DNA of 64,000 bases, from contig CAZAEI010000003.1 in assembly GCA_964484305.1 (NCBI GenBank), positions 4,672 through 68,671 of the forward strand. Direction: 5' to 3'. Source of the stretch: an uncultured archaeon. GTDB lineage: Archaea; Aenigmatarchaeota; Aenigmatarchaeia; QMZP01. Shown piece by piece: positions 735 through 52,499 of the stretch (position 1 is its first letter; each line of letters opens with the position of its first letter). Under the pieces are notes generated by a model that made no database searches, was not told the DNA's origin, and worked only from the letters and a program-made list of their open reading frames with translations. The position numbers and the translations under genes were made by a program.

Positions 735-862
735 TTAATCACCTTGATTGCAAAAGACGGCCAGCGGCCGTCAAACGGCTTTAACCATTATTGGTTAACC
801 AATTACTATACAATCTACATAACTGTGTATTTAAATGTTTACAGGGATGCCATGAAAAGATA

Positions 863-1135
863 TGAGGGGGGCCGGAATTCAGCCGCTTTACCGGGAGTAG
901 ACCGGTAGAGGGCACGACTTGCGGACTTGCGTCCGAAGCCCTCTGCGGTTTCGAACCGACGAAGGCATCTCACCCAATCCTCCCTCTCGGGAGGCAGGCA
1001 CTGAGCCACAGGATTTCTCATTATGCATCCGCACTCGATACTCAAGCCGGTTCTTTCCTTCCCGACCCGCCGTATAAGGGAAGGTCGGGCAAGATAGCTT
1101 GAGTCCTGCCCCTTTGACCACTCGGGAACCCCCTC
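863..1135 (-). tRNA. tRNA-Leu(CAA) interrupted by three introns (about 83, 33 and 73 nt)
   Basis: Minus-strand cloverleaf: acceptor GAGGGGG/CCCCCTC+A, D arm CCC-GAGTGGTCAAA-GGG, anticodon arm CAGGA-CTCAAGA-TCCTG, long variable arm TGGCTCAGTGCCTTC, T arm GTCGG-TTCGAAA-CCGGC. It forms only after removing 1015-1097 (position 37/38; BHB central helix CTCA/TGAG), 967-999 (variable arm; central helix CTCA/TGAG) and 873-945 (T arm; inferred from restored T-stem and acceptor pairing, BHB not obvious). Mature length is about 84 nt. Confidence 0.7.
1057..1090 (-). repeat. CCCGACC...GGTCGGG hairpin element, short copy inside the tRNA-Leu anticodon-loop intron
   Basis: Minus-sense GCCCGACCTTCCCTTATACGGCGGGTCGGGAAGG. 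It shares the termini CCCGACCTTCC / GGGTCGGGAAGG with the copies at 3538-3604 and 12824-12892. Confidence 0.6.
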
Positions 1136-1237
1136 ATCCCCGCTTACGAGAGTCTGCCGACTTCTGCAAGCGGGGGAGCAACTAGAAAGATTACCAATTA
1201 ACGGCTTAAAAACGTTTTGTGCCAAGAATCAGAGGCT

Positions 1238-1861
1238 CTAGGTCATTTCCTTGAGCTCGGTCTTTATCTTTTCCATCTGCTCATAGATGCCCTTTACGTA
1301 CTTATCAACGTCGCCCGGTGCGTCTATGTCAAAGTCCTCTATGGCGCTGGCCCTTAGGAGTTTGGAGTCAAGGATTGCTATAATCGTATTGAAATCGTCA
1401 AGGGCCTTGTTTGCTATCGAGATTCCCGTGGTCATCTCCTTCTCTATGTCTGACAGTGCATCCATTGCATCCCTCAGGCTGAGCGAATAGGACTTGAGCT
1501 TCTGAAGGTTCTTCACTATGTCAGTGTACTTGTCTATCTTGATGAATACGGGCGGTGAGCCGTGGATATCCCTGGCCTCCCCCCTTGGCTTGCCCCCTGT
1601 TTCAGGCAGCTTCAGGGGCTCAGCCACACCCCTGGCCTTTGCCTCAGGGGCAGCCGCGGCTGGCGGCGCGGGCTCTTCCTTTACCTCCGGCTTTCTTGGC
1701 GCTGCCGGGGCGGGGAGGTCAATATCAGAAGACGGGGCAGGTGGAACCGGCATCCCGGGAGGCACTGGCATCGCCCTGTCAGGGGCCGGCGGCATCCCGG
1801 CAGGCACCGGGACATCCGGCGCTTTCTTCCTAATCTTGGGCAAATCAATCATCACAACCAC
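1238..1861 (-). CDS. hypothetical protein with Pro/Ala-rich N-terminal half and coiled-coil C-terminal domain
   Basis: 207-aa ORF. The C-terminal part (FIKIDKYTDIVKNLQKLKSYSLSLRDAMDALSDIEKEM...) looks like a real folded domain. The overlapping + strand ORFs are low-complexity. Confidence 0.6.
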   Translation of the reverse strand: MVVMIDLPKIRKKAPDVPVPAGMPPAPDRAMPVPPGMPVPPAPSSDIDLPAPAAPRKPEVKEEPAPPAAAAPEAKARGVAEPLKLPETGGKPRGEARDIHGSPPVFIKIDKYTDIVKNLQKLKSYSLSLRDAMDALSDIEKEMTTGISIANKALDDFNTIIAILDSKLLRASAIEDFDIDAPGDVDKYVKGIYEQMEKIKTELKEMT

Positions 1862-1902
1862 TACAATAATAATTGTTTCCCAACTTATATATGTTTTAAT
1901 AA

Positions 1903-2054
1903 TGCGCCGACCGGGATTCGAATTCCCGAGCCAATCTTTAACCGAGTCAAAGAGGCTTCCCGGGTCACAGGCTTGGAAGGCCTATCCCAATCACAGGCAG
2001 AAGTCTCAGGATTTCCAAGTGACTGTCTGGATCCTACCACTAGACTATCGGCGC
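1903..2054 (-). tRNA. tRNA-Gly(UCC) with two introns (about 45 nt between D arm and anticodon stem; 36 nt at 53/54 in the T arm)
   Basis: Minus strand: GCGCCGA-TA-GTCT-AGTGGTA-GGAT ... A-TAGGC-CTTCCAA-GCCTG-TGAC-CCGGG ... TTCGAAT-CCCGG-TCGGCGC-A. The T-arm intron (1923-1958) has a canonical BHB: central helix CCCG/CGGG, bulges GGA and AAT, inner helix AGCC/GGCT. Boundaries of the first intron (about 1986-2030) are uncertain. Confidence 0.75.
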
Positions 2055-2185
2055 ATTGTTTTGAATATTGAATACACCTATTTAAATCTTGCAAAGCCCG
2101 GAGGGATATCGTCTTGCAGAAGCCCTTTCATGTTTCTTTCGGACGCGTTTCTTGAGGAAGTTGTTAACTCCTGTAAAGAAAGGTG

Positions 2186-2749
2186 TCAGAAGTCGAAGTC
2201 TATTTTCTGCTTCTCAGATGGGCTGGCGCTCTCTGTTGACGGGGCTTCATGTTCCTCAGGGACATCCCTCTCCTCTGGAGGGCTCTCTGCAGGTTTTTGT
2301 TCGGCAGGCCTTTCTGCAGACCCTCCCTTGGGTATGCTGCCCGCTATCTTCTTTGCAATCGAATCCATGCTGGCCTCGTCCTGCTTCTTTATAGGCAGGA
2401 CGCCCTCAAGCCCCAGGCCCTTTTCGGCCTCGGTCCTGGGTATGATGTGGAAGAGTATGTGGGGAACCAGCTGCCCTGCCATCTGGCCGTTGCTCTGGCT
2501 TATGGATATACCCCTTGCGCCCGTGGCCTTCCTCACCCCTATGGCAACCCTCCTGATGGCCTTCACGAGGACGGTGGCATCATCCTCGCTTGCACTGAAG
2601 ATGTCCTCTATGTGCTTCTTTGGAATCACGAGGGTGTGCCCCGGATTCCTGGGGTTGATGTCAAGGAAGGCCAGGTTATGTTCATCCTCATAGACCTTTC
2701 TGATCGGAATCTCACCTTTAACTATCTTACAGAATATACAATCTTCCAT
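2186..2749 (-). CDS. HIT (histidine triad) family nucleotide hydrolase/transferase with acidic Pro/Glu-rich C-terminal tail
   Basis: 187 aa; CIFCKIVKGEIP..., NPRNPGHTLVIPKKH, intact triad VPHILFHIIPR. Confidence 0.85.
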   Translation of the reverse strand: MEDCIFCKIVKGEIPIRKVYEDEHNLAFLDINPRNPGHTLVIPKKHIEDIFSASEDDATVLVKAIRRVAIGVRKATGARGISISQSNGQMAGQLVPHILFHIIPRTEAEKGLGLEGVLPIKKQDEASMDSIAKKIAGSIPKGGSAERPAEQKPAESPPEERDVPEEHEAPSTESASPSEKQKIDFDF

Positions 2750-2753
2750 AAAA

Positions 2754-3194
2754 TCACCTATTTTGGTATTTGGACTTAATCTTTTTAACCATTCCGTCTT
2801 TCTCTTTATCAGGAATCTTCTTGACAGGGAGTATACCCTCGAGGCTTACCGGGTCCTCGCTGGAAAACCTTGGAATCACACGGAACTTTATGTGCTTGAT
2901 GACCTGGCCTGCCGAGGCCCCGCTGCTCTGGGAGATTAACACCCCGTCAGCTTTTGTTCCCCTGAGTATGCCTATCGAGACCTTACGCACTGCCTTGAAG
3001 AGGTGGCATGCCTCCTCCTCGGGGAGGTCCATAATAGTCTCGTGGTGATTGTTTGTTACAACCACTGTGTGGCCGGGGTTCCTGGGATTGATGTCCAGAA
3101 AGGCAGTGGTCCACTTGTCCTGGTAGACCTTCTTGGCCTTTATAACACCCTTCACTATCCCGCAGAATATGCAGTCCCTTACACTCGTGGCCAT
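2754..3194 (-). CDS. HIT-like paralogue with degenerate histidine triad
   Basis: 146 aa; CIFCGIVKG..., NPRNPGHTVVVTNNH. The triad position reads VIKHIKFRVIPR (H-x-K-x-R instead of H-x-H-x-H). Confidence 0.8.
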   Translation of the reverse strand: MATSVRDCIFCGIVKGVIKAKKVYQDKWTTAFLDINPRNPGHTVVVTNNHHETIMDLPEEEACHLFKAVRKVSIGILRGTKADGVLISQSSGASAGQVIKHIKFRVIPRFSSEDPVSLEGILPVKKIPDKEKDGMVKKIKSKYQNR

Positions 3195-3236
3195 TGCAAC
3201 CCTTGTGTTAATAATTGCAGGGCATTATTTAAATAA

Positions 3237-3398
3237 TGGGGCCACCCGGATTTGAACCGGGGTCGGCGGCTCTTCATGAACCCGTCTCTTTCGGAAGCGA
3301 GCGGAACGCAGTGAAGCGAAGCTCCTTTTCCGTGAACGCTTTTCTGAAAAAGGGTTCTCCCAAAGCCGCAATGCTAGACCAAGCTACACCATGGCCCC
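3237..3398 (-). tRNA. tRNA-Pro(UGG) with 87-nt intron at 37/38
   Basis: Minus strand: GGGGCCA-TG-GTGT-AGCTTGGTCTA-GCAT-T-GCGGC-TTTGGG[intron 3272-3358]A-GCCGC-CGAC-CCCGG-TTCAAAT-CCGGG-TGGCCCC-A. BHB geometry is kept: 7 nt on each strand between the anticodon stem and the intron helix GAACCC/GGGTTC. The central helix itself is weak. Confidence 0.8.
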
Positions 3399-3461
3399 GT
3401 TACCTTTCACCCGACTTGGCTGTGCGGTGTAAGTCGGGCAACATCCTTTGTATATTCTGGG
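3387..3461 (-). repeat. tRNA-Pro 5' end + leader hairpin + promoter-like box (unit 1 of a local duplication)
   Basis: acaccatggccccgttaccttt ... hairpin cccgactt/aagtcggg (3408-3440) ... ctttgtatattctgg. Repeated at 3517-3625. Confidence 0.7.
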
Positions 3462-3516
3462 AATTTGGCTTAAGCCTTTGTCTTTGTGGAAGGACTTGTC
3501 CTCCTGTAAAGGCTTA

Positions 3517-3625
3517 ACACCATGGCCCCATTACCTTTCCTTCCCGACCCAACTTGTCTGCCTGTGCCGGAGGCACAGGACTGGACTGGTTCGGAAGGTC
3601 GGGTGAATGCTTTGTATATTCTGGA
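3517..3625 (-). repeat. Duplicate of the tRNA-Pro promoter/leader plus the first 13 nt of the tRNA (unit 2), carrying the long hairpin element
   Basis: acaccatggccccattaccttt and gctttgtatattctgg match unit 1. The hairpin core is replaced by the 67-nt element 3538-3604. No full tRNA follows the 13-nt GGGGCCATGGTGT fragment. Confidence 0.65.
3538..3604 (-). repeat. CCCGACC...GGTCGGG hairpin element, long copy
   Basis: Reverse complement is about 90% identical to 12824-12892. Inner stem CCTGTGCC/GGCACAGG is conserved while the loop differs (TCC vs GAG). Confidence 0.7.
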
Positions 3626-3665
3626 ACAGGTATTTAAATCAAAAACCTGTCTATTATCACAACAG

Positions 3666-3862
3666 GCCTCGGTAGCTCAGTTGGGTAGAGCGATTAGACA
3701 GGATGTCTCGTAAGCCTCGTAACTGGGCGGGAAAGCAATAGGTCGAGGGTTCGACATGACCCCTTTTCAAGAAAAAGCGTCAACGGAAAAAGGAGGCTAC
3801 TCCACTTCGTTTCGTTACGCCTTCCAAATGAAAAACGGTTCAAGGGAATCCCTCCCGGGGCT
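3666..3862 (+). tRNA. tRNA-Thr(CGU) with three introns (18, 12 and 93 nt)
   Basis: GCCTCGG-TA-GCTC-AGTTGGGTA-GAGC-G-ATT[3696-3713]GC-CTCGTAA[3723-3734]GCAAT-AGGTC-GAGGG-TTCGA[3755-3847]AT-CCCTC-CCGGGGC-T. Removing the two mini-introns creates a perfect anticodon arm ATTGC-CTCGTAA-GCAAT. Intron 1 fits BHB (central helix GCGA/TCGT, inner GAC/GTC) and so does intron 2 (central helix CTCG/CGGG). Mature length 74 nt. Confidence 0.75.
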
Positions 3863-3867
3863 TTTAT
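3850..3867 (+). repeat. att-like core = 3' end of tRNA-Thr (first copy)
   Basis: ccctcccggggctt (3850-3863) recurs at 4843-4856. ctcccggggcttttat (3852-3867) recurs at 5740-5755. Confidence 0.7.
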
Positions 3868-4277
3868 TTTTCCAACAAATCAGATACAAAAGACCTCAGG
3901 TTTTTTATCCTTGATATGACGGTATTAGCTTCTTCTGCGGATATGGATTTTCCATAGTAGTTAAGTGCATTCCTCACTTTTCTGACATCATCAAATTCGT
4001 CTCCCTTTCTACTTTCTCTTATAATCTCTTTCAGAAAAGCAGTATAACATTCATGGTTGTATACCTTGTATCCTTTTTTAAGAGCAAGAGCCTCCAGAAG
4101 TTCCCGTAACGAATCATAAGCCAGGGAAAGCTTAGAAGCCGCTGTTATATCACTCATGTCGAGCCTGCTTTCAGATTCCAGTTTGTTTCTGCTTGATATG
4201 ATTAAGGACTTTATGAAATTCATATCAGGCTTCACACCTTTAACTATCCCTTTATTGTTACATTCCTCCCAGTCCAT
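3864..4277 (-). CDS. HEPN domain protein (putative toxin of an MNT-HEPN pair)
   Basis: 137 aa, all-alpha; C-terminal VRKVRNALNYYG motif in the position of the HEPN Rx4-6H motif. Its start abuts the stop of the nucleotidyltransferase gene. Confidence 0.7.
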   Translation of the reverse strand: MDWEECNNKGIVKGVKPDMNFIKSLIISSRNKLESESRLDMSDITAASKLSLAYDSLRELLEALALKKGYKVYNHECYTAFLKEIIRESRKGDEFDDVRKVRNALNYYGKSISAEEANTVISRIKNLRSFVSDLLEK

Positions 4278-38232: not shown

Positions 38233-39993
38233 ATGGAAAAGAAGATACGCTCTCCAATCGTGGTCATGCTCGGACATTGATTATCCTTGTGATAACCAGC
38301 CGAAAACGTTGACCACGGAAAGACTTCAATACTTGACAACATCAGGGAAACCGCTGTCACCAAGACAGAGCCAGGACTCATAACCCAGCATATATCGGCC
38401 TCCTACATCCCCAGGAATATCATAGTAGAAAGGTGCGGGAAGATGCTTGATAAGCTTGGCATAGAATTCACAATCCCGGGCATTCTTGCTATCGACTCCC
38501 CGGGCCACGAGGCCTTCACCACACTCAGGAAGAGGGGTGGGGCAATAGCAGACCTCGCGGTCCTTGTCATCGACATAAACGAGGGCTTCAAGCCCCAGAC
38601 CGAGGAGAGCCTGAACTATCTCAAGCAGTTCAAGACCCCCTTTGTGGTCGCCGCAACCAAGATAGACAGGATTGCGGGATGGTCCCTTTCTCCCGGGGCG
38701 TGCTTCTCCGAGGCCTATGAGAACCAGCCCGAGAGGTCCAGTGAGGAGCTGGACAACAAGCTCTACCGCCTGATAGGCCAGCTGGGGGAGAGGGGCTTCT
38801 CTGCAGAGAGGTTCGACAGGGTCCAGGACTTCACCAAGCAGATTGCGGTCGTCCCGCTCTCAAACGCATCCGGCGAGGGCATACCCGACCTGCTCGTTAT
38901 GCTGGGGGGCATTGCCCAGAGGTACCTCAAGGAGCGGCTCGAGCTGACGCCGGGATGGGGCAAGGGAACCGTCCTGGAGGTCAAGGAGTACCGGGGCCTC
39001 GGGACAACGGTTGATGTCATACTGTATGACGGGGAGATAAGGCGCGGGGATACCCTGGTAATAGGGGGGGAGAAGACTGCCGTCACCAAGGTGCGGGCCC
39101 TCCTGACGCCAAAGCCGCTCAGGGAGCTAAGGATAGAGAAGGACTTCAGGACCATACCATCTGTCCGGGCTGCTGCGGGAATCAAGATATCAGCCCCCGG
39201 CCTTGAGGGGGTCATTGCAGGCTCCCCCTTAAGGGCAGTGAGCAACGAGAGGGATATTGACCAGGCCACCAAGGAGGTCAGAAGCGAGATGTCCGAGGTC
39301 GAGCTCGAGACCGACCATGAGGGTGTTGTCCTCAAGGCCGATACCCTGGGAAGCCTGGAGGCCCTAATAAAGACCCTCAGGGATGCGGGCATCAAGGTCA
39401 GGAAGGCCCGCGTCGGGGCAGTGACCAAGAGCGACATAGCCGAGCTCAGGTCCCTGGGGGAGCCCATGATATTCGCCTTCGGGGTGAGGATTCCCCCTGA
39501 AATAGGGAAGCTTGCCGAGGACAATTCAGTAAAGATATTCTCCTCTGACGTGATTTACCGCCTTGTCGAGGAGCACGAGAAGTGGAATAAGGACAGGAAG
39601 CTCAGGGAGGAGGAGGCCCTCCTGGCCAGCGTGTCCAGGCCCGCGAGGGTGAGGGCCCTGCCCGGATACGTCTTCAGGCAGAGCAAGCCGGCAGTCTTCG
39701 GCGTCGAGGTGATGAAGGGCATAATCCGCCCGGGCGCCACCCTCTCCAATAAGGGAAGGGACATCGGCGAGATAAGGGAGATACAGTCCAGGGGCGAGAA
39801 CGTCAGGGAGGCCGAGGCAGGGGAGAGGGTTGCCCTGTCCATGGCCGGCGTTGTGGTGGGCAGGGATGTAGAGGAGGGGGATGAGCTCGATGTCAGGGTG
39901 ACCGATAAGGACAGGGAGGTCCTGAAGAAGCTCAAACCAAGGCTCAGGGGAGACGAGCTCGAACTCCTGGAGGAGATGGATAATGTTTCCTGA
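38233..39993 (+). CDS. infB: translation initiation factor aIF5B (IF2 homologue), interrupted by a 30-nt putative BHB intron (exons 38233-38275 and 38306-39993)
   Basis: Exon 1 encodes MEKKIRSPIVVMLGH. After the insert the frame reads VDHGKTSILDNIRETAV...ITQHISA...DSPGHEAF...ATKIDR. The G1 motif GHVDHGKT is split by tga-containing sequence. The joined length is 576 aa, normal for aIF5B. Confidence 0.8.
38276..38305 (+). other. putative bulge-helix-bulge pre-mRNA intron in infB (30 nt)
   Basis: Outer helix cgtggtca(38259-66)/tgaccacg(38310-17). Central 4-bp helix tcgg(38270-73)/ccga(38300-03). Bulge aca(38274-76) and A-rich bulge(38304-07). Inner helix ttgattatc/gataaccag with loop cttgt. Cutting 2 nt 3' of each central-helix strand gives GGA CAC GTT GAC CAC = GHVDH. 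Confidence 0.65.
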
Positions 39994-42965: not shown

Positions 42966-43814
42966 ATGGTTATGTCAACAGAAACAGGTTCAAAAGCAGT
43001 AATCTTTGAAAAGCGGAAGATTTATCCTACTGGAACGACTGTTGGCAGGGCCAGGCCCATGGAGTTACAGGGAGAATACGGACCAGAAATAACACAATTT
43101 AATGAAGTATACAGCATTCTTGCAACCCTTGAAGACACAGCAACGCTTGGTGATATGGCAAAACTGTTTGAACACTATCTGCAGTCAGAGCTTGGCGTGC
43201 TTGACTTGAAAAATGAACAGGACACCCTTCTCAAATACCTCTTTGCTGAAACAGGAAAGGGAAACGTCTGTGCCAATGCTGCTAATTACAGTTTCAATGA
43301 CAGTGGTCTAAAGAAAATCCACGAAAGCGACAGGCGCGTTTTATGGGTTGTGCGGCCTGAGTATCTTGATCATAAAAACATTAAGGGAGGAGAAGAATAC
43401 CCAGAATGCGTTCCCATAACAGGCTGGATTGCATTCCCAGAAGACACAGGAAAGGGGCTCTTTCGAAGAACCAAAGACGGTGAGGTGTTGGGAATACCTG
43501 AATTCACTGTTCCCACCAAGGAGGAAGCCAAAAGGACCTTCATTGACAGGGGATTTTCAGAAAAATTTGCAGAGAATGCCGTTTCTAAATGGTACAGTAG
43601 AGGTGAGGGTGATGGAGTATCCGCTGTGGTTCGCTATTCCGGCGGCAGGAACGGTCAGTTCGTTGCGAATGCCGATGAGCATCCGTCGGACAGGAGCTCG
43701 AGTTTCGGTCGGTTCCCTTCCAGTAGGTCGCCGAGCGGAGCGAGGCACGCCGGTAAGAATGAAATTGCCGACCAGTTGGTAGCTCTGGCTGCTCAGTTGA
43801 GATCAAAAGGATAA
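42966..43814 (+). CDS. DGR variable (target) protein with C-terminal C-type-lectin/FGE-like variable region
   Basis: 282 aa. The C-terminus ...SAVVRYSGGRNGQFVANADEHPSDRSSSFGRFPSS... is encoded by VR. No signal peptide or TM segment is evident. Confidence 0.85.
   Translation: MVMSTETGSKAVIFEKRKIYPTGTTVGRARPMELQGEYGPEITQFNEVYSILATLEDTATLGDMAKLFEHYLQSELGVLDLKNEQDTLLKYLFAETGKGNVCANAANYSFNDSGLKKIHESDRRVLWVVRPEYLDHKNIKGGEEYPECVPITGWIAFPEDTGKGLFRRTKDGEVLGIPEFTVPTKEEAKRTFIDRGFSEKFAENAVSKWYSRGEGDGVSAVVRYSGGRNGQFVANADEHPSDRSSSFGRFPSSRSPSGARHAGKNEIADQLVALAAQLRSKG
43620..43733 (+). repeat. DGR variable repeat (VR)
   Basis: Aligns to TR (offset 470, then 494). All 13 mismatches in about 107 aligned nt fall at TR adenines (43630, 43641, 43642, 43645, 43662, 43663, 43667, 43674, 43689, 43696, 43702, 43704, 43723). 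Homology decays after 43726 in an IMH-like way. Confidence 0.9.
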
Positions 43815-44089
43815 ATGTCACCACATCTAATTCTATTCATCTCTCTGGTAACAGGGAGATCACCAGAAAGCTGGGCATCAGTGTCGATATGTCCATTGGA
43901 CATGCCGAGTATATGCGTGAACTACATGCCTGGTTATAGTGCTATGAGGCGTTAGTTTCATGGCCATAAAATACAGCGGCGATACCGATAATATGAGGTA
44001 AAGCCGCAGTGTGCATCCGAAACAATACTGCTTATAAGAAGGTGAGCAGCCACACTACAAGATGCATTTAGTAACACAGGCTACAAGGG

Positions 44090-44227
44090 TCCGCTGTGGA
44101 TCGCTATTCCAACGACAGGAACGGTCAGTTCAATGCAAATGCCAATGAGCATCCGTCGAACAGGAAATCTCTTGCTTGTAGAGACCTGAACTCGAATATC
44201 GGTCGGTTCCCTTCCAATAGTCCGCTG
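44090..44227 (+). repeat. DGR template repeat (TR), containing a 24-nt TR-only insert
   Basis: Adenine-rich AAY codons in the VR frame (aac gac agg aac ... aat gca aat gcc aat). Lies immediately upstream of avd. Confidence 0.9.
44167..44190 (+). other. putative bulge-helix-bulge intron within the DGR template RNA (24 nt)
   Basis: Outer helix tcga(44156-59)/tcga(44192-95). Central helix cagg(44161-64)/cctg(44185-88). Bulges aaa(44165-67) and aac(44189-91). Inner helix tctct(44168-72)/agaga(44180-84) with a 7-nt loop. Excision makes TR co-linear with VR. Confidence 0.6.
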
Positions 44228-44260: not shown

Positions 44261-44614
44261 ATGTCCTATACCCTTCTGTTCCAAAAAACATATGACCTTG
44301 TAAAGTGGATATACCCAACTGTCAACAAATTTCCTCGGAAACAGAGACTTACTCTCTCACAGAGAATTGAGGTAACCACAATCAGAATACTCGAATTGGT
44401 TATTGATCTCAGTGACCGAGATACTGCAGTTAACAGAAAGAAAATCCTCCATGAACTTCATAAACTCCAGATTCTCCTGCGTCTGTGCAAGGATCTTTCT
44501 TACCTGAGCTTCAAGCGATACGCATATGTGAGTTTCCTGATTACCGAAATAATTCAGATATTGGACAAGTGGGGGGGGGGGTCTCGTGGAGGTCTGCAGA
44601 AATTTGTTTCCTAA
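44261..44614 (+). CDS. avd: DGR accessory variability determinant (Avd; four-helix-bundle, 23S rRNA-IVS protein family)
   Basis: 117 aa from ATG 44261: MSYTLLFQKTYDLVKWIYPTVNKFPRKQRLTLSQRIE.... The longer track ORF (from 44096) merely reads through TR. Confidence 0.8.
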   Translation: MSYTLLFQKTYDLVKWIYPTVNKFPRKQRLTLSQRIEVTTIRILELVIDLSDRDTAVNRKKILHELHKLQILLRLCKDLSYLSFKRYAYVSFLITEIIQILDKWGGGSRGGLQKFVS

Positions 44615-45653
44615 GCTTTGCTCATTCAGGAATCTTGAGCTTGCATACAGAAAAGCAAGAAGAAACAAGCGATGCAAACCAGCAGTCCAGAAATTTGAAA
44701 TGCATCTGGAGCAGAACATTCTCCAGCTCAAACATGAGCTTGAAACAGGAGCATACACTCCCCGTCCACTCAGACAATTTGTTATCCGAGATACAAAGAC
44801 AAGGGTGATTTCCGCTTCCCGTTTCAGGGACAGGGTAGTTCATCACGCTCTGTGTAATACCATCCAGCCAATCCTTGAGAAATCATTCATTCATGATTCC
44901 TGCGCAAACCAGATAGGGAAAGGGGCGAGCAGAGCATTAGAACGGTTTGATACATTCAAGAGAAGGGTCTCGGAAAACGGCAGACTTGTGAACAAACCAA
45001 TCACCACTAGCATAGTGATTGGATACGTATTGAAAGCAGATATCAGGCATTATTTTGATACTGTTGATCACGAGGTGTTGCTTACCATCATCCAAAAGAA
45101 AGTCAAGGACAAGCGGGTAATGGGATTGATAAAGAAAATTCTGGACAATCACTACATTCCAACCCCTGGAAAAGGTATGCCTCTCGGGAATCTCACTAGC
45201 CAGTTCTTTGCAAATGTATATCTGAATGAACTTGATTATTTTGTGAAGCATATATTGAAAGCAAGACACTACATCAGATATGTTGATGATTTTGTTGTGC
45301 TGCACAAATCACGAGAGTGTTTGGAGCAACATAAAAGGCAGATTGAAGACTTTTTACAAACACTCAAACTTGAATTGCATCCAGAAAAGTCCAAGATCTA
45401 TTTGCTCTGCAAAGGAACGTCATTTCTTGGTTTTCGTGTGTTCTATCATCATAAACTTGTCAAGAAAAACAATCTGCGAAGAATGAGAAAGAGGGTTTCG
45501 GAATTTCGGTCAGTGTATGGTAAGAATGAAGAGTTTGATCAAGAAATATTGAGAAGTTTTACCGGTTGGTGCGCTTATGCTATGCAGGGAGATACGTACA
45601 AGTTTCGAAAAAGAATGATGGAAGAACTCACAGGAGGCGAACATGCCCTTTAA
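44586..45653 (+). CDS. DGR-type reverse transcriptase
   Basis: 355 aa (GTG start); PLGNLTSQFFANVYLNELD (the DGR-specific SQ motif) and YVDDFVV catalytic box. Confidence 0.9.
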   Translation: MEVCRNLFPKLCSFRNLELAYRKARRNKRCKPAVQKFEMHLEQNILQLKHELETGAYTPRPLRQFVIRDTKTRVISASRFRDRVVHHALCNTIQPILEKSFIHDSCANQIGKGASRALERFDTFKRRVSENGRLVNKPITTSIVIGYVLKADIRHYFDTVDHEVLLTIIQKKVKDKRVMGLIKKILDNHYIPTPGKGMPLGNLTSQFFANVYLNELDYFVKHILKARHYIRYVDDFVVLHKSRECLEQHKRQIEDFLQTLKLELHPEKSKIYLLCKGTSFLGFRVFYHHKLVKKNNLRRMRKRVSEFRSVYGKNEEFDQEILRSFTGWCAYAMQGDTYKFRKRMMEELTGGEHAL

Positions 45654-51533: not shown

Positions 51534-52499
51534 TCAACCTCCTCCCTTAGCTTCTAAAAAGATTTTATATTGTTGGTATTTTCTCTGTAAAAACAGATGA
51601 GCGTCTTTGTATATCCAGTCCGCTAGTCCCTTACCTCTACTACATGAATACTGAACTATGAATGTATTATTGCTTATTTTTCGGATTCTAGAAACAACAC
51701 CAAGATTTTCTCTAATTTTTTCTACCATCTTCTTCAAGAACTCTGGTGAACCAGAAGAAACCGTTATTTCAAAATAAGGGCTTCTTTTTCTTTCAACATA
51801 TCTTACATTTCCATCACCATCAATAATACCCCTAATAAAATGTCGTAGATAGTCTGTTGGTATATCCGGGAATTTTACTATAAGAGATTTTCGGGGAATA
51901 ACTCCTAGCTCCATAAGTCTCAAACATATTTTCTTATTATTTACTATCAATCTGTTCGATTTTGTCTTTTCAGCATAAAGTAAAGGCTTTGTGCTTAGAA
52001 GTAGTTTTCTTATTCTTACCAGATGAATTCTATCTTTTTCTGATGCTGTTATTGTAAGAGATTGGTAACCTTTTGAAGGATTCCAAGCCACATTCCCATC
52101 AGCAAATATATAACCCAGAATATATGCTGAATCTTCGTTCCATTCATTAAAAAAAGATTCGTTAACGGTGTGTTTTTTGTGGCGAAACCCCAGCTCTGCA
52201 CTCCATTTGTTTATCGTTGTCTTCCCCACACCCAATCTTCTTGCTATCTCCCTCTGTGAGACTTTTCCTAAATTCGATTCAATAAAGGAGATCATTGACT
52301 GTTTTTTCTTTGGATCGATTTTTGTGCCCATAGATAGATTTATGGTTTTATCGCATAAATATGTCGGGTGACCTTCTATATATGGCTCTGAATCATATAA
52401 GCACAATTCCATGCTAATCATCTTAATCTTTCCAACCCAGCGAGACTGGATTAAGAAAATCTTATAAATCCACCCATTTATATAAGTTTCAATATACAA
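51534..52499 (-). CDS. free-standing double-motif LAGLIDADG homing endonuclease with N-terminal HTH
   Basis: 321 aa; [10 protein letters not shown] and [11 protein letters not shown] motifs; [22 protein letters not shown]. Strongly AT-rich. Its last codons (GGA GGA GGT TGA) supply the metK Shine-Dalgarno. Confidence 0.85.

Follow-up and report, generated by a model that had tools for sequence, protein, structure and literature searches.

Why does the template repeat (TR) of an archaeal diversity-generating retroelement (DGR) carry 24 nt that are missing from the variable repeat (VR) which it templates? The question is raised by a DGR in a 64,000-nt stretch of DNA from an uncultured archaeon (Aenigmatarchaeota; QMZP01; assembly GCA_964484305.1, contig CAZAEI010000003.1, positions 4,672-68,671 of the forward strand), hereafter called the window. 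An initial annotation of the window had proposed that the 24 nt form a bulge-helix-bulge (BHB) intron, which is spliced from the TR transcript by the tRNA-splicing endonuclease and ligase before the RNA templates mutagenic cDNA. This proposal is supported by the register of the insert boundaries, by covariation, by two intron-less VR alleles and by BHB introns in genes of the host. Splicing of the leader-TR RNA by the host enzymes EndA and RtcB before mutagenic reverse transcription is very probably the best explanation of the sequence data.

Comparison of the template and variable repeats

Repeat detection revealed that the start offset between the direct repeats shifts from 470 to 494 nt, which corresponds to a 24-nt block present in TR only. 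After removal of this block (44167-44190), a MAFFT alignment and base-by-base comparison of the 107 aligned nt showed 13 differences between TR and VR, all of them at TR adenines (13 of 29 adenines). The homology of the two repeats stops at 44220 in TR and 43726 in VR, and from 44221 and 43727 onwards non-A positions differ as well. Thus, the restriction of the 13 substitutions to adenines and the presence of the block in TR alone, both claimed in the initial annotation, were borne out.

A 3-nt microhomology (GAA) allows four equivalent placements of the block, from 44164-87 to 44167-90, and the segment predicted from the BHB structure, 44167-44190, is one of them. The cut rule put forward earlier, which places each cut 2 nt past the 3' end of a central-helix strand, removes exactly this segment and reproduces the VR junction: the canonical cuts in TR join CAGGAA to CTCGAA, and the VR counterpart reads CAGGAG joined to CTCGAG. 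The distance from the intron to the 3' end of TR is 30 nt both in the window and in the five orthologues measured (L001 and L003-L006, where L numbers denote loci or contigs of the comparison).

Recurrence of TR-only inserts in archaeal DGRs

Other archaeal DGRs were surveyed for TR-only inserts with BHB flanks using 80 genome loci with relatives of the window reverse transcriptase (RT) and 49 metagenome loci, in which adenine-biased repeats were chained. A recognizable TR/VR pair was found in 83 of the archaeal loci scanned. The metagenome scan with the window RT returned relatives of at most 55% identity, and the window's own population was not among them. In the window and 17 of the 82 other archaeal loci with such a pair, TR exceeds VR by 15-108 nt. 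This excess is made up of 28 separate TR-only inserts (15-57 nt) in 18 loci, with a maximum of three inserts per TR (L008, L014 and L028). These inserts are shorter than the catalytic core of group I or group II introns (>200 nt), and Rfam searches gave no intron hit.

No genuine VR-only inserts were found among the archaeal TR/VR loci scanned. Apparent cases in L083 and L125 were rejected as chaining artefacts in AT-rich sequence past the end of TR. A control set of 55 phage and bacterial DGR loci with TR/VR pairs showed only ±3-nt indels and not a single insert reaching 10 nt. The TR introns occur in 10 of the 12 Aenigmatarchaeota-labelled loci with a TR/VR pair and in none of the Woesearchaeota-labelled loci with such a pair. 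The TR of L009 is uninterrupted at the site orthologous to the window intron (ACAGGAA followed directly by CCCGAATATCGG), which shows that introns have been gained or lost inside the clade.

The three-intron TRs (L008 1972-2191, L014 3800-3970 and L028 3812-3971) have three BHB introns in about 110 nt of exon and are up to twice as long as their VRs. Their intron density rivals that of the most fragmented archaeal tRNA genes.

Register and covariation of the insert boundaries

For a register test, the insert boundaries were taken from the TR/VR comparison only, and every allowed placement had to reproduce the VR sequence, with A-to-N changes permitted. Pairing was then scored between positions -6 to -3 relative to the 5' boundary and positions -5 to -2 relative to the 3' boundary (central helix), followed by the intron-internal helix. 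A complete central helix (4/4) together with an inner helix of at least 2 bp was found in 23 of the 28 inserts, and all 28 have at least three of the four central pairs. Random pseudo-introns of the same lengths from the same loci, scored as the best of eight shifts, gave 0.73 of 28 on average and a maximum of 5 in 2000 trials.

In register, pairs form in 107 of the 112 central-helix cells (95.5%), and the first three cells of the inner helix are 97.6% paired, whereas sliding the boundary by 1-3 nt at either end lowers central-helix pairing to 16-41%. The TR introns have 17 distinct combinations of the two central-helix strands. At the site orthologous to the window intron, compared in 10 loci, pairing reaches 97.5% in the central helix, where two pairs have changed on both strands (as from CAGG/CCTG to CGAG/CTCG in L028), and 93.3% in the inner helix, where all three pairs have done so. 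Of 500 shuffled versions of this site, none reached the observed value in four of five measures, including the covariation score, and five did so in the fifth.

The predicted exon junction matches VR in all 28 cases with A-to-N changes only, except for a single non-A mismatch at one junction; 23 of the 24 junctions scored for non-A mismatches had none. Eight of the 28 junctions have no microhomology.

Variable repeat alleles in the population

The exact target protein of the window DGR is encoded on nine contigs, and the four that extend into TR have a TR identical to that of the window, intron included. A second target allele (P0123, on contig L135 from a different run) differs by nine residues, all of them in VR. 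At the DNA level, the differences between its VR and that of the window all fall at TR-adenine positions, and they lie on both sides of the exon junction. The 24 nt are absent from this VR as well, and the TR of L135 is intron-bearing and identical to the window TR. The expectation that TR keeps the block and VR lacks it therefore held in the assemblies: the intron-bearing TR is the same in five further independent assemblies (four with the window VR allele, and L135), and both known VR alleles are intron-less.

During retrohoming, cDNA integration proceeds from the 3' end of VR across the junction. Since the mutated sites flank the junction, retrohoming must have crossed it after the two alleles diverged, and the block was not reintroduced. 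Together with the identical TRs, the L135 allele rules out that the element is inactive, that a single deletion explains the difference, and that the block is an assembly artefact, the last of which had been named in the initial annotation as a possible source of the 24 nt.

BHB splicing in the host

The window also encodes a tRNA-Gly(TCC) with two BHB introns, both of which have a complete central helix (4/4) and obey the same cut rule as the TR intron. ARAGORN recognized this tRNA solely after excision of both predicted introns. The same rule had earlier been claimed for the T-arm intron of tRNA-Gly and for two tRNA-Leu and two tRNA-Thr introns of the window. It holds for the T-arm intron and, in addition, for the second tRNA-Gly intron, whereas a relaxed splice-and-scan search of 800-3900 gave noisy candidates only for tRNA-Leu and tRNA-Thr.

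A further BHB intron of 30 nt interrupts the gene for the translation factor aIF5B. The insert lies within the P-loop and has in-frame stops; the alignment with an intact relative (P0125, 87% identical, without the insert) reads LGH[10 codons]VDHGKT, and the mechanical list of open reading frames (ORFs) gives a shortened aIF5B of 516 aa. Removal of the insert restores LGHVDHGKT. As the P-loop is restored only in this way, an essential mRNA of the host requires BHB splicing. Protein-coding BHB introns are known mainly from crenarchaeal cbf5, and a BHB intron in a DPANN translation factor seems noteworthy. A screen of the window for further mRNA introns gave only unvalidated candidates besides aIF5B.

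The first intron nucleotide is A, and the 3' bulge begins with A, in every one of the 28 TR introns and likewise in the three host introns. This common signature is consistent with the action of a single enzyme.

Around 800-3900 (both strands), tRNA genes appear to be densely clustered and heavily disrupted, and ARAGORN and the Rfam tRNA model in their standard form recognized none or one of them. The region includes a tRNA-Pro(TGG) at c[3237,3398] with an intron of about 87 nt, for which no clean BHB was found. In two related loci (L009 7500-7997 and L005 2221-2324), the Rfam model detected tRNA genes of 104-142 nt, indicating that intron-containing tRNAs lie beside these DGRs too.

Proposed mechanism and alternative explanations

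We infer that EndA and RtcB are the enzymes involved, that cleavage and ligation act on the TR RNA, and that splicing precedes reverse transcription. In this scheme, the leader-TR RNA would be transcribed and cut by EndA 2 nt 3' of each CAGG/CCTG strand, that is, after 44166 and after 44190, and the RNA ligase RtcB would join the TR exons. The complex of RT and Avd would copy the spliced RNA into adenine-mutagenized cDNA, which would then replace VR. With spliced RNA as the template, VR would be a processed, intron-less copy of TR.

The register of the inserts would be accounted for equally well if EndA cut the TR RNA and the exons stayed unligated, with the RT switching templates from the 5' end of the 3' exon to the 3' end of the 5' exon, so that RtcB would not be needed. 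Group II-intron-like RTs are known to switch templates. However, all 28 junctions are clean, with no nucleotides gained or lost beyond A-to-N changes, and the three-intron TRs would need three consecutive precise switches. In addition, the host needs a working ligase anyway, for tRNA-Gly and aIF5B. We consider cleavage followed by template switching improbable.

A jump of the RT over a stable hairpin in unspliced TR RNA, or repair of a looped-out heteroduplex at cDNA integration, is less probable again and in our view very unlikely. RT slippage is the published account of TR/VR indels, with length differences in 7% of DGRs, mostly beside AAC (Wu et al. 2017, PMC5758913), and the window junction has both a GAA microhomology and an AAC (44189-91). 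TR and VR lengths differ here as in the published cases; slippage indels, however, are small, occur in either direction and lie beside AAC repeats, whereas the archaeal inserts are 15-57 nt long, confined to TR and bounded by a BHB. The 55 phage and bacterial loci, with their ±3-nt indels, and the eight junctions without microhomology also speak against slippage. The insert endpoints are staggered in the manner of EndA cuts, with the 5' strand of the helix kept, its 3' strand lost and the cuts placed 2 nt past the helix, whereas a jump across the base of a hairpin would be symmetric. Shifting an endpoint by 1 nt destroys the pairing, and the inserts track a BHB-intron-rich lineage of archaea.

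A historical accident (a one-off VR deletion or TR insertion in an inactive DGR, or an assembly error) would be the default for one locus alone, but it deserves almost no credence given the identical TRs in five further assemblies, the VR alleles that diverged at TR adenines flanking the junction without reintroduction of the block, and the recurrence of BHB-register inserts in 17 other loci. The comparative data support splicing of the TR RNA as the only explanation that fits all of them.

Structure of the window motif and evidence against splicing

The minimum free energy (MFE) structure predicted by RNAfold for 44150-44205 is exactly the BHB drawn in the initial annotation, and the same structure appears when the entire TR or the 363-nt leader-plus-TR segment is folded. 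It comprises the central helix CAGG/CCTG (44161-64/44185-88), two 3-nt bulges (AAA 44165-67 and AAC 44189-91) and an inner helix (44168-72/44180-84). The motif had been described as near-textbook, but the outer tcga/tcga helix (44156-59/44192-95) requires a bulged A44160 and is 50% paired in the orthologous TRs. Because the outer helix is non-conserved and needs this bulge, the window motif is a BHB of the relaxed HBh' type and falls outside the strict hBHBh' definition.

Several observations weigh against splicing of the TR RNA. With the exon-exon outer helix absent or non-conserved, the TR RNA is a relaxed HBh' substrate, which needs an EndA of broad specificity; DPANN EndAs with the L3 loop have been associated with a broadened substrate range and more disrupted tRNA genes (PMC5829648). 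The z-scores of the window fold are unremarkable and non-significant (-1.38 and 0.11). A permissive BHB scan, which asked for introns of 15-60 nt with a 4-bp helix, an inner helix no shorter than 4 bp and adenine in two bulge positions, found 2.7 motifs per kb in TRs compared with 2.1 per kb in the background, and motif presence was rejected as evidence by itself. The GAA microhomology at the window junction would also fit an RT jump, and the excess of intron lengths divisible by three, described below, is unexplained by simple splicing. Finally, a Pfam scan of 46 of the 64 listed window ORFs (the other 18 include 12 smaller ones) detected neither EndA nor RtcB, which is unsurprising for a 64-kb window.

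The geometry of the single motif, on which the initial annotation had leaned, is therefore reproduced by the predicted fold and statistically unpersuasive as an argument on its own (z-score of -1.4; loose motifs at about 2 per kb). Since such motifs are common and the z-scores weak, the case for splicing rests on the coincidence of the BHB with the boundaries of the TR/VR indels.

Intron lengths and possible roles

The lengths of 19 of the 28 TR introns are multiples of three (binomial p = 2e-4 against 1/3), and 16 of these 19 have no stop in the VR frame. The host introns of 45, 36, 30 and possibly 87 nt are multiples of three too. This bias could point to tolerance of intron retention or to the way in which the introns originate. 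For the nine TR introns of other lengths, imprecise or absent removal would shift the frame of the target gene, so that precision is required.

Candidate roles of the TR introns include neutral spread into a non-coding RNA, interruption of the DNA homology between TR and VR, and regulation. More tentatively, and with less than even confidence, we suggest that the TR introns are selectively maintained throughout the DGRs of the Aenigmarchaeota type, that retrohoming depends on, and is possibly regulated by, tRNA splicing, that the break in TR/VR homology protects the template from recombination or self-homing, and that occasional intron retention is used or tolerated to give VR length variants. 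On this reading, the strong excess of in-frame, stop-free lengths would reflect such retention, as alternative splicing recorded in the genome.

Relation to known systems

Archaeal BHB introns are found in the precursors of tRNA and rRNA and in a few mRNAs, that of cbf5 among them; they are cut out by EndA, and RtcB joins the ends. The TR introns resemble them in the 4-bp helix between two 3-nt bulges, the fixed cut positions and the intron-internal helix. They differ in that the TR RNA is the template of a retroelement, that splicing would be recorded in DNA as VR, and that the exon-exon helix is missing. Template RNAs of retroelements would thus form a new class of splicing endonuclease substrates, beside tRNA, rRNA and a handful of mRNAs, and a hypermutation system would be linked to a housekeeping pathway of RNA processing.

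An engineered td group I intron was reportedly placed in the TR of the Bordetella phage BPP-1 DGR by Guo and co-workers in 2008. As proposed here for archaea, the intron is removed at the RNA level and the intron-less sequence reaches cDNA and VR, a result that counts as the classic proof that an RNA intermediate exists. The td intron engineered into this phage TR was found to be spliced, with the spliced RNA serving as the template (Naorem et al. 2017, PMC5703328). Unlike this artificial, self-splicing bacterial construct of about 400 nt, the window-type introns are natural, 15-57 nt long, predicted to be protein-dependent and conserved in a lineage. The VR would accordingly be a natural spliced retrocopy of TR, and the window DGR a natural counterpart of the td-intron experiment for archaeal DGRs, which are experimentally unstudied.

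A similar relationship is seen in RT-mediated intron loss and processed retrocopies, where a DNA copy of a spliced RNA lacks the intron of its source. Elsewhere such loss is a rare accident, whereas here it would be a programmed, repeated step of a domesticated retroelement. RT-mediated intron loss, long hypothesized, would then be observable directly and repeatedly in these genomes.

The window element shares its RT clade, Avd, A-to-N mutagenesis and C-terminal VR with previously described DPANN DGRs (Paul et al. 2015, PMC4372165; Paul et al. 2017; Roux et al. 2021, PMC8144416). TR introns are not mentioned in PMC4372165 or PMC8144416, and one of the loci compared here (L010) comes from a Nanoarchaeota single-cell genome of the 2015 study (PMC4372165). 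Unlike the Woese-, Pace- and Nanoarchaeota-type loci examined, in which TRs are mostly uninterrupted, intron-bearing TRs are concentrated in Aenigmatarchaeota. In line with the earlier statement that no description of a spliced DGR template was known, a literature search, which did not cover Paul et al. 2017, found no link of DGRs to BHB splicing or to the splicing endonuclease. The DGR and the BHB intron are each known; their combination and its lineage-wide recurrence are new. DGR finders that use contiguous blastn matches between TR and VR will shorten or miss intron-bearing elements, and DPANN TR/VR indels published as RT slippage deserve re-examination.

Organization of the window DGR

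The window is chromosomal archaeal DNA encoding, among others, proteasome, exosome, SBDS, FttA, FtsZ, Cdc6, SerRS, CarAB, GGGP synthase and FtsY proteins. The closest named relatives of its aIF5B are from Aenigmarchaeota. The RT has thousands of DPANN relatives, the top match being 71% identical and from Aenigmatarchaeota, and its nearest relatives are DPANN RTs with adjoining TR/VR pairs. The target gene with VR is followed in order by the RT-16 leader, TR, avd and the RT gene (Table 1). Based on the RVT_1 and bAvd matches, the location of all 13 substitutions at TR adenines and the 3'-terminal position of VR in the target ORF, the element is a bona fide DGR of the canonical type on the chromosome of an Aenigmarchaeota-like DPANN archaeon. 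That it is active, with VR still being diversified, is seen from the nine VR residues changed at TR-A sites in the L135 allele.

Table 1. Positions of the DGR components and of host BHB introns in the window (plus-strand coordinates).
Feature	Position	Strand	Remarks
DGR target gene	42966..43814	+	282-aa ORF (280 aa from alternative start 42972); VR near the C-terminus
VR	43620..43726	+	Colinear with the spliced TR; equivalent of the exon-exon junction between 43696 and 43697
RT-16 RNA (probable structured 5' leader)	43901..44089	+	Rfam match, 51.2 bits, above the gathering score
TR exon 1, A-rich mutagenic part	44090..44166	+	Ends in CAGGAA (6 nt): central-helix 5' strand plus two bulge nt
TR-only 24-nt BHB intron (predicted)	44167..44190	+	A, TCTCT TGCTTGT AGAGA, CCTG, AA in order; absent from VR
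BHB (HBh') motif	44156..44195	+	MFE fold; covariation at the orthologous site
TR exon 2	44191..44220	+	30 nt, mostly invariant, ends in ..CCAATAG
avd accessory gene (bAvd-like four-helix bundle)	44264..44614	+	Pfam PF22296, E = 3e-15
G11 homopolymer between avd and RT	44571..44581	+	Length varies among assemblies
DGR reverse transcriptase	44586..45653	+	RVT_1 PF00078, E = 4e-22; motifs LGNLTSQ and YVDD
tRNA-Gly(TCC) with two BHB introns	1903..2054	-	Introns 1982-2026 (45 nt, anticodon stem) and 1923-1958 (36 nt, T-arm)
30-nt BHB intron in aIF5B (infB; gene 38233-39993)	38276..38305	+	tblastn with intact relative P0125; BHB register

RT-16 is an orphan RT-associated RNA motif in Rfam (PMC5737381). 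In the window, its match stops exactly at the start of TR (44090), and of 17 related loci with TR introns that were tested, 14 likewise have RT-16 abutting TR or just 5' of it. Because of this position, RT-16 most likely serves this clade as the structured leader at the 5' end of the DGR template RNA, which would give the orphan motif a role. An ORF reading from TR into avd or RT was found in 6 of 18 loci, with about one third expected by chance, and this candidate was dropped.

The target protein, examined for a C-type-lectin or Ig-like fold around VR, gave no match in Pfam and PDB searches and has four homologues only; its AlphaFold model, with a pLDDT of 33.5, was too poor for a fold search. 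The G-tract between avd and RT is G11, G10 or G9 in independent assemblies, and the G10 form joins Avd and RT in one ORF of 463 aa (P0001). This length variation could be phase variation or frameshifting controlling RT expression, or a homopolymer sequencing error. Elsewhere in the window, an ORF at 51534-52499 (minus strand) encodes a LAGLIDADG_3 homing-endonuclease-like domain with helix-turn-helix domains and adjoins a bacterial-type S-adenosylmethionine synthetase gene.

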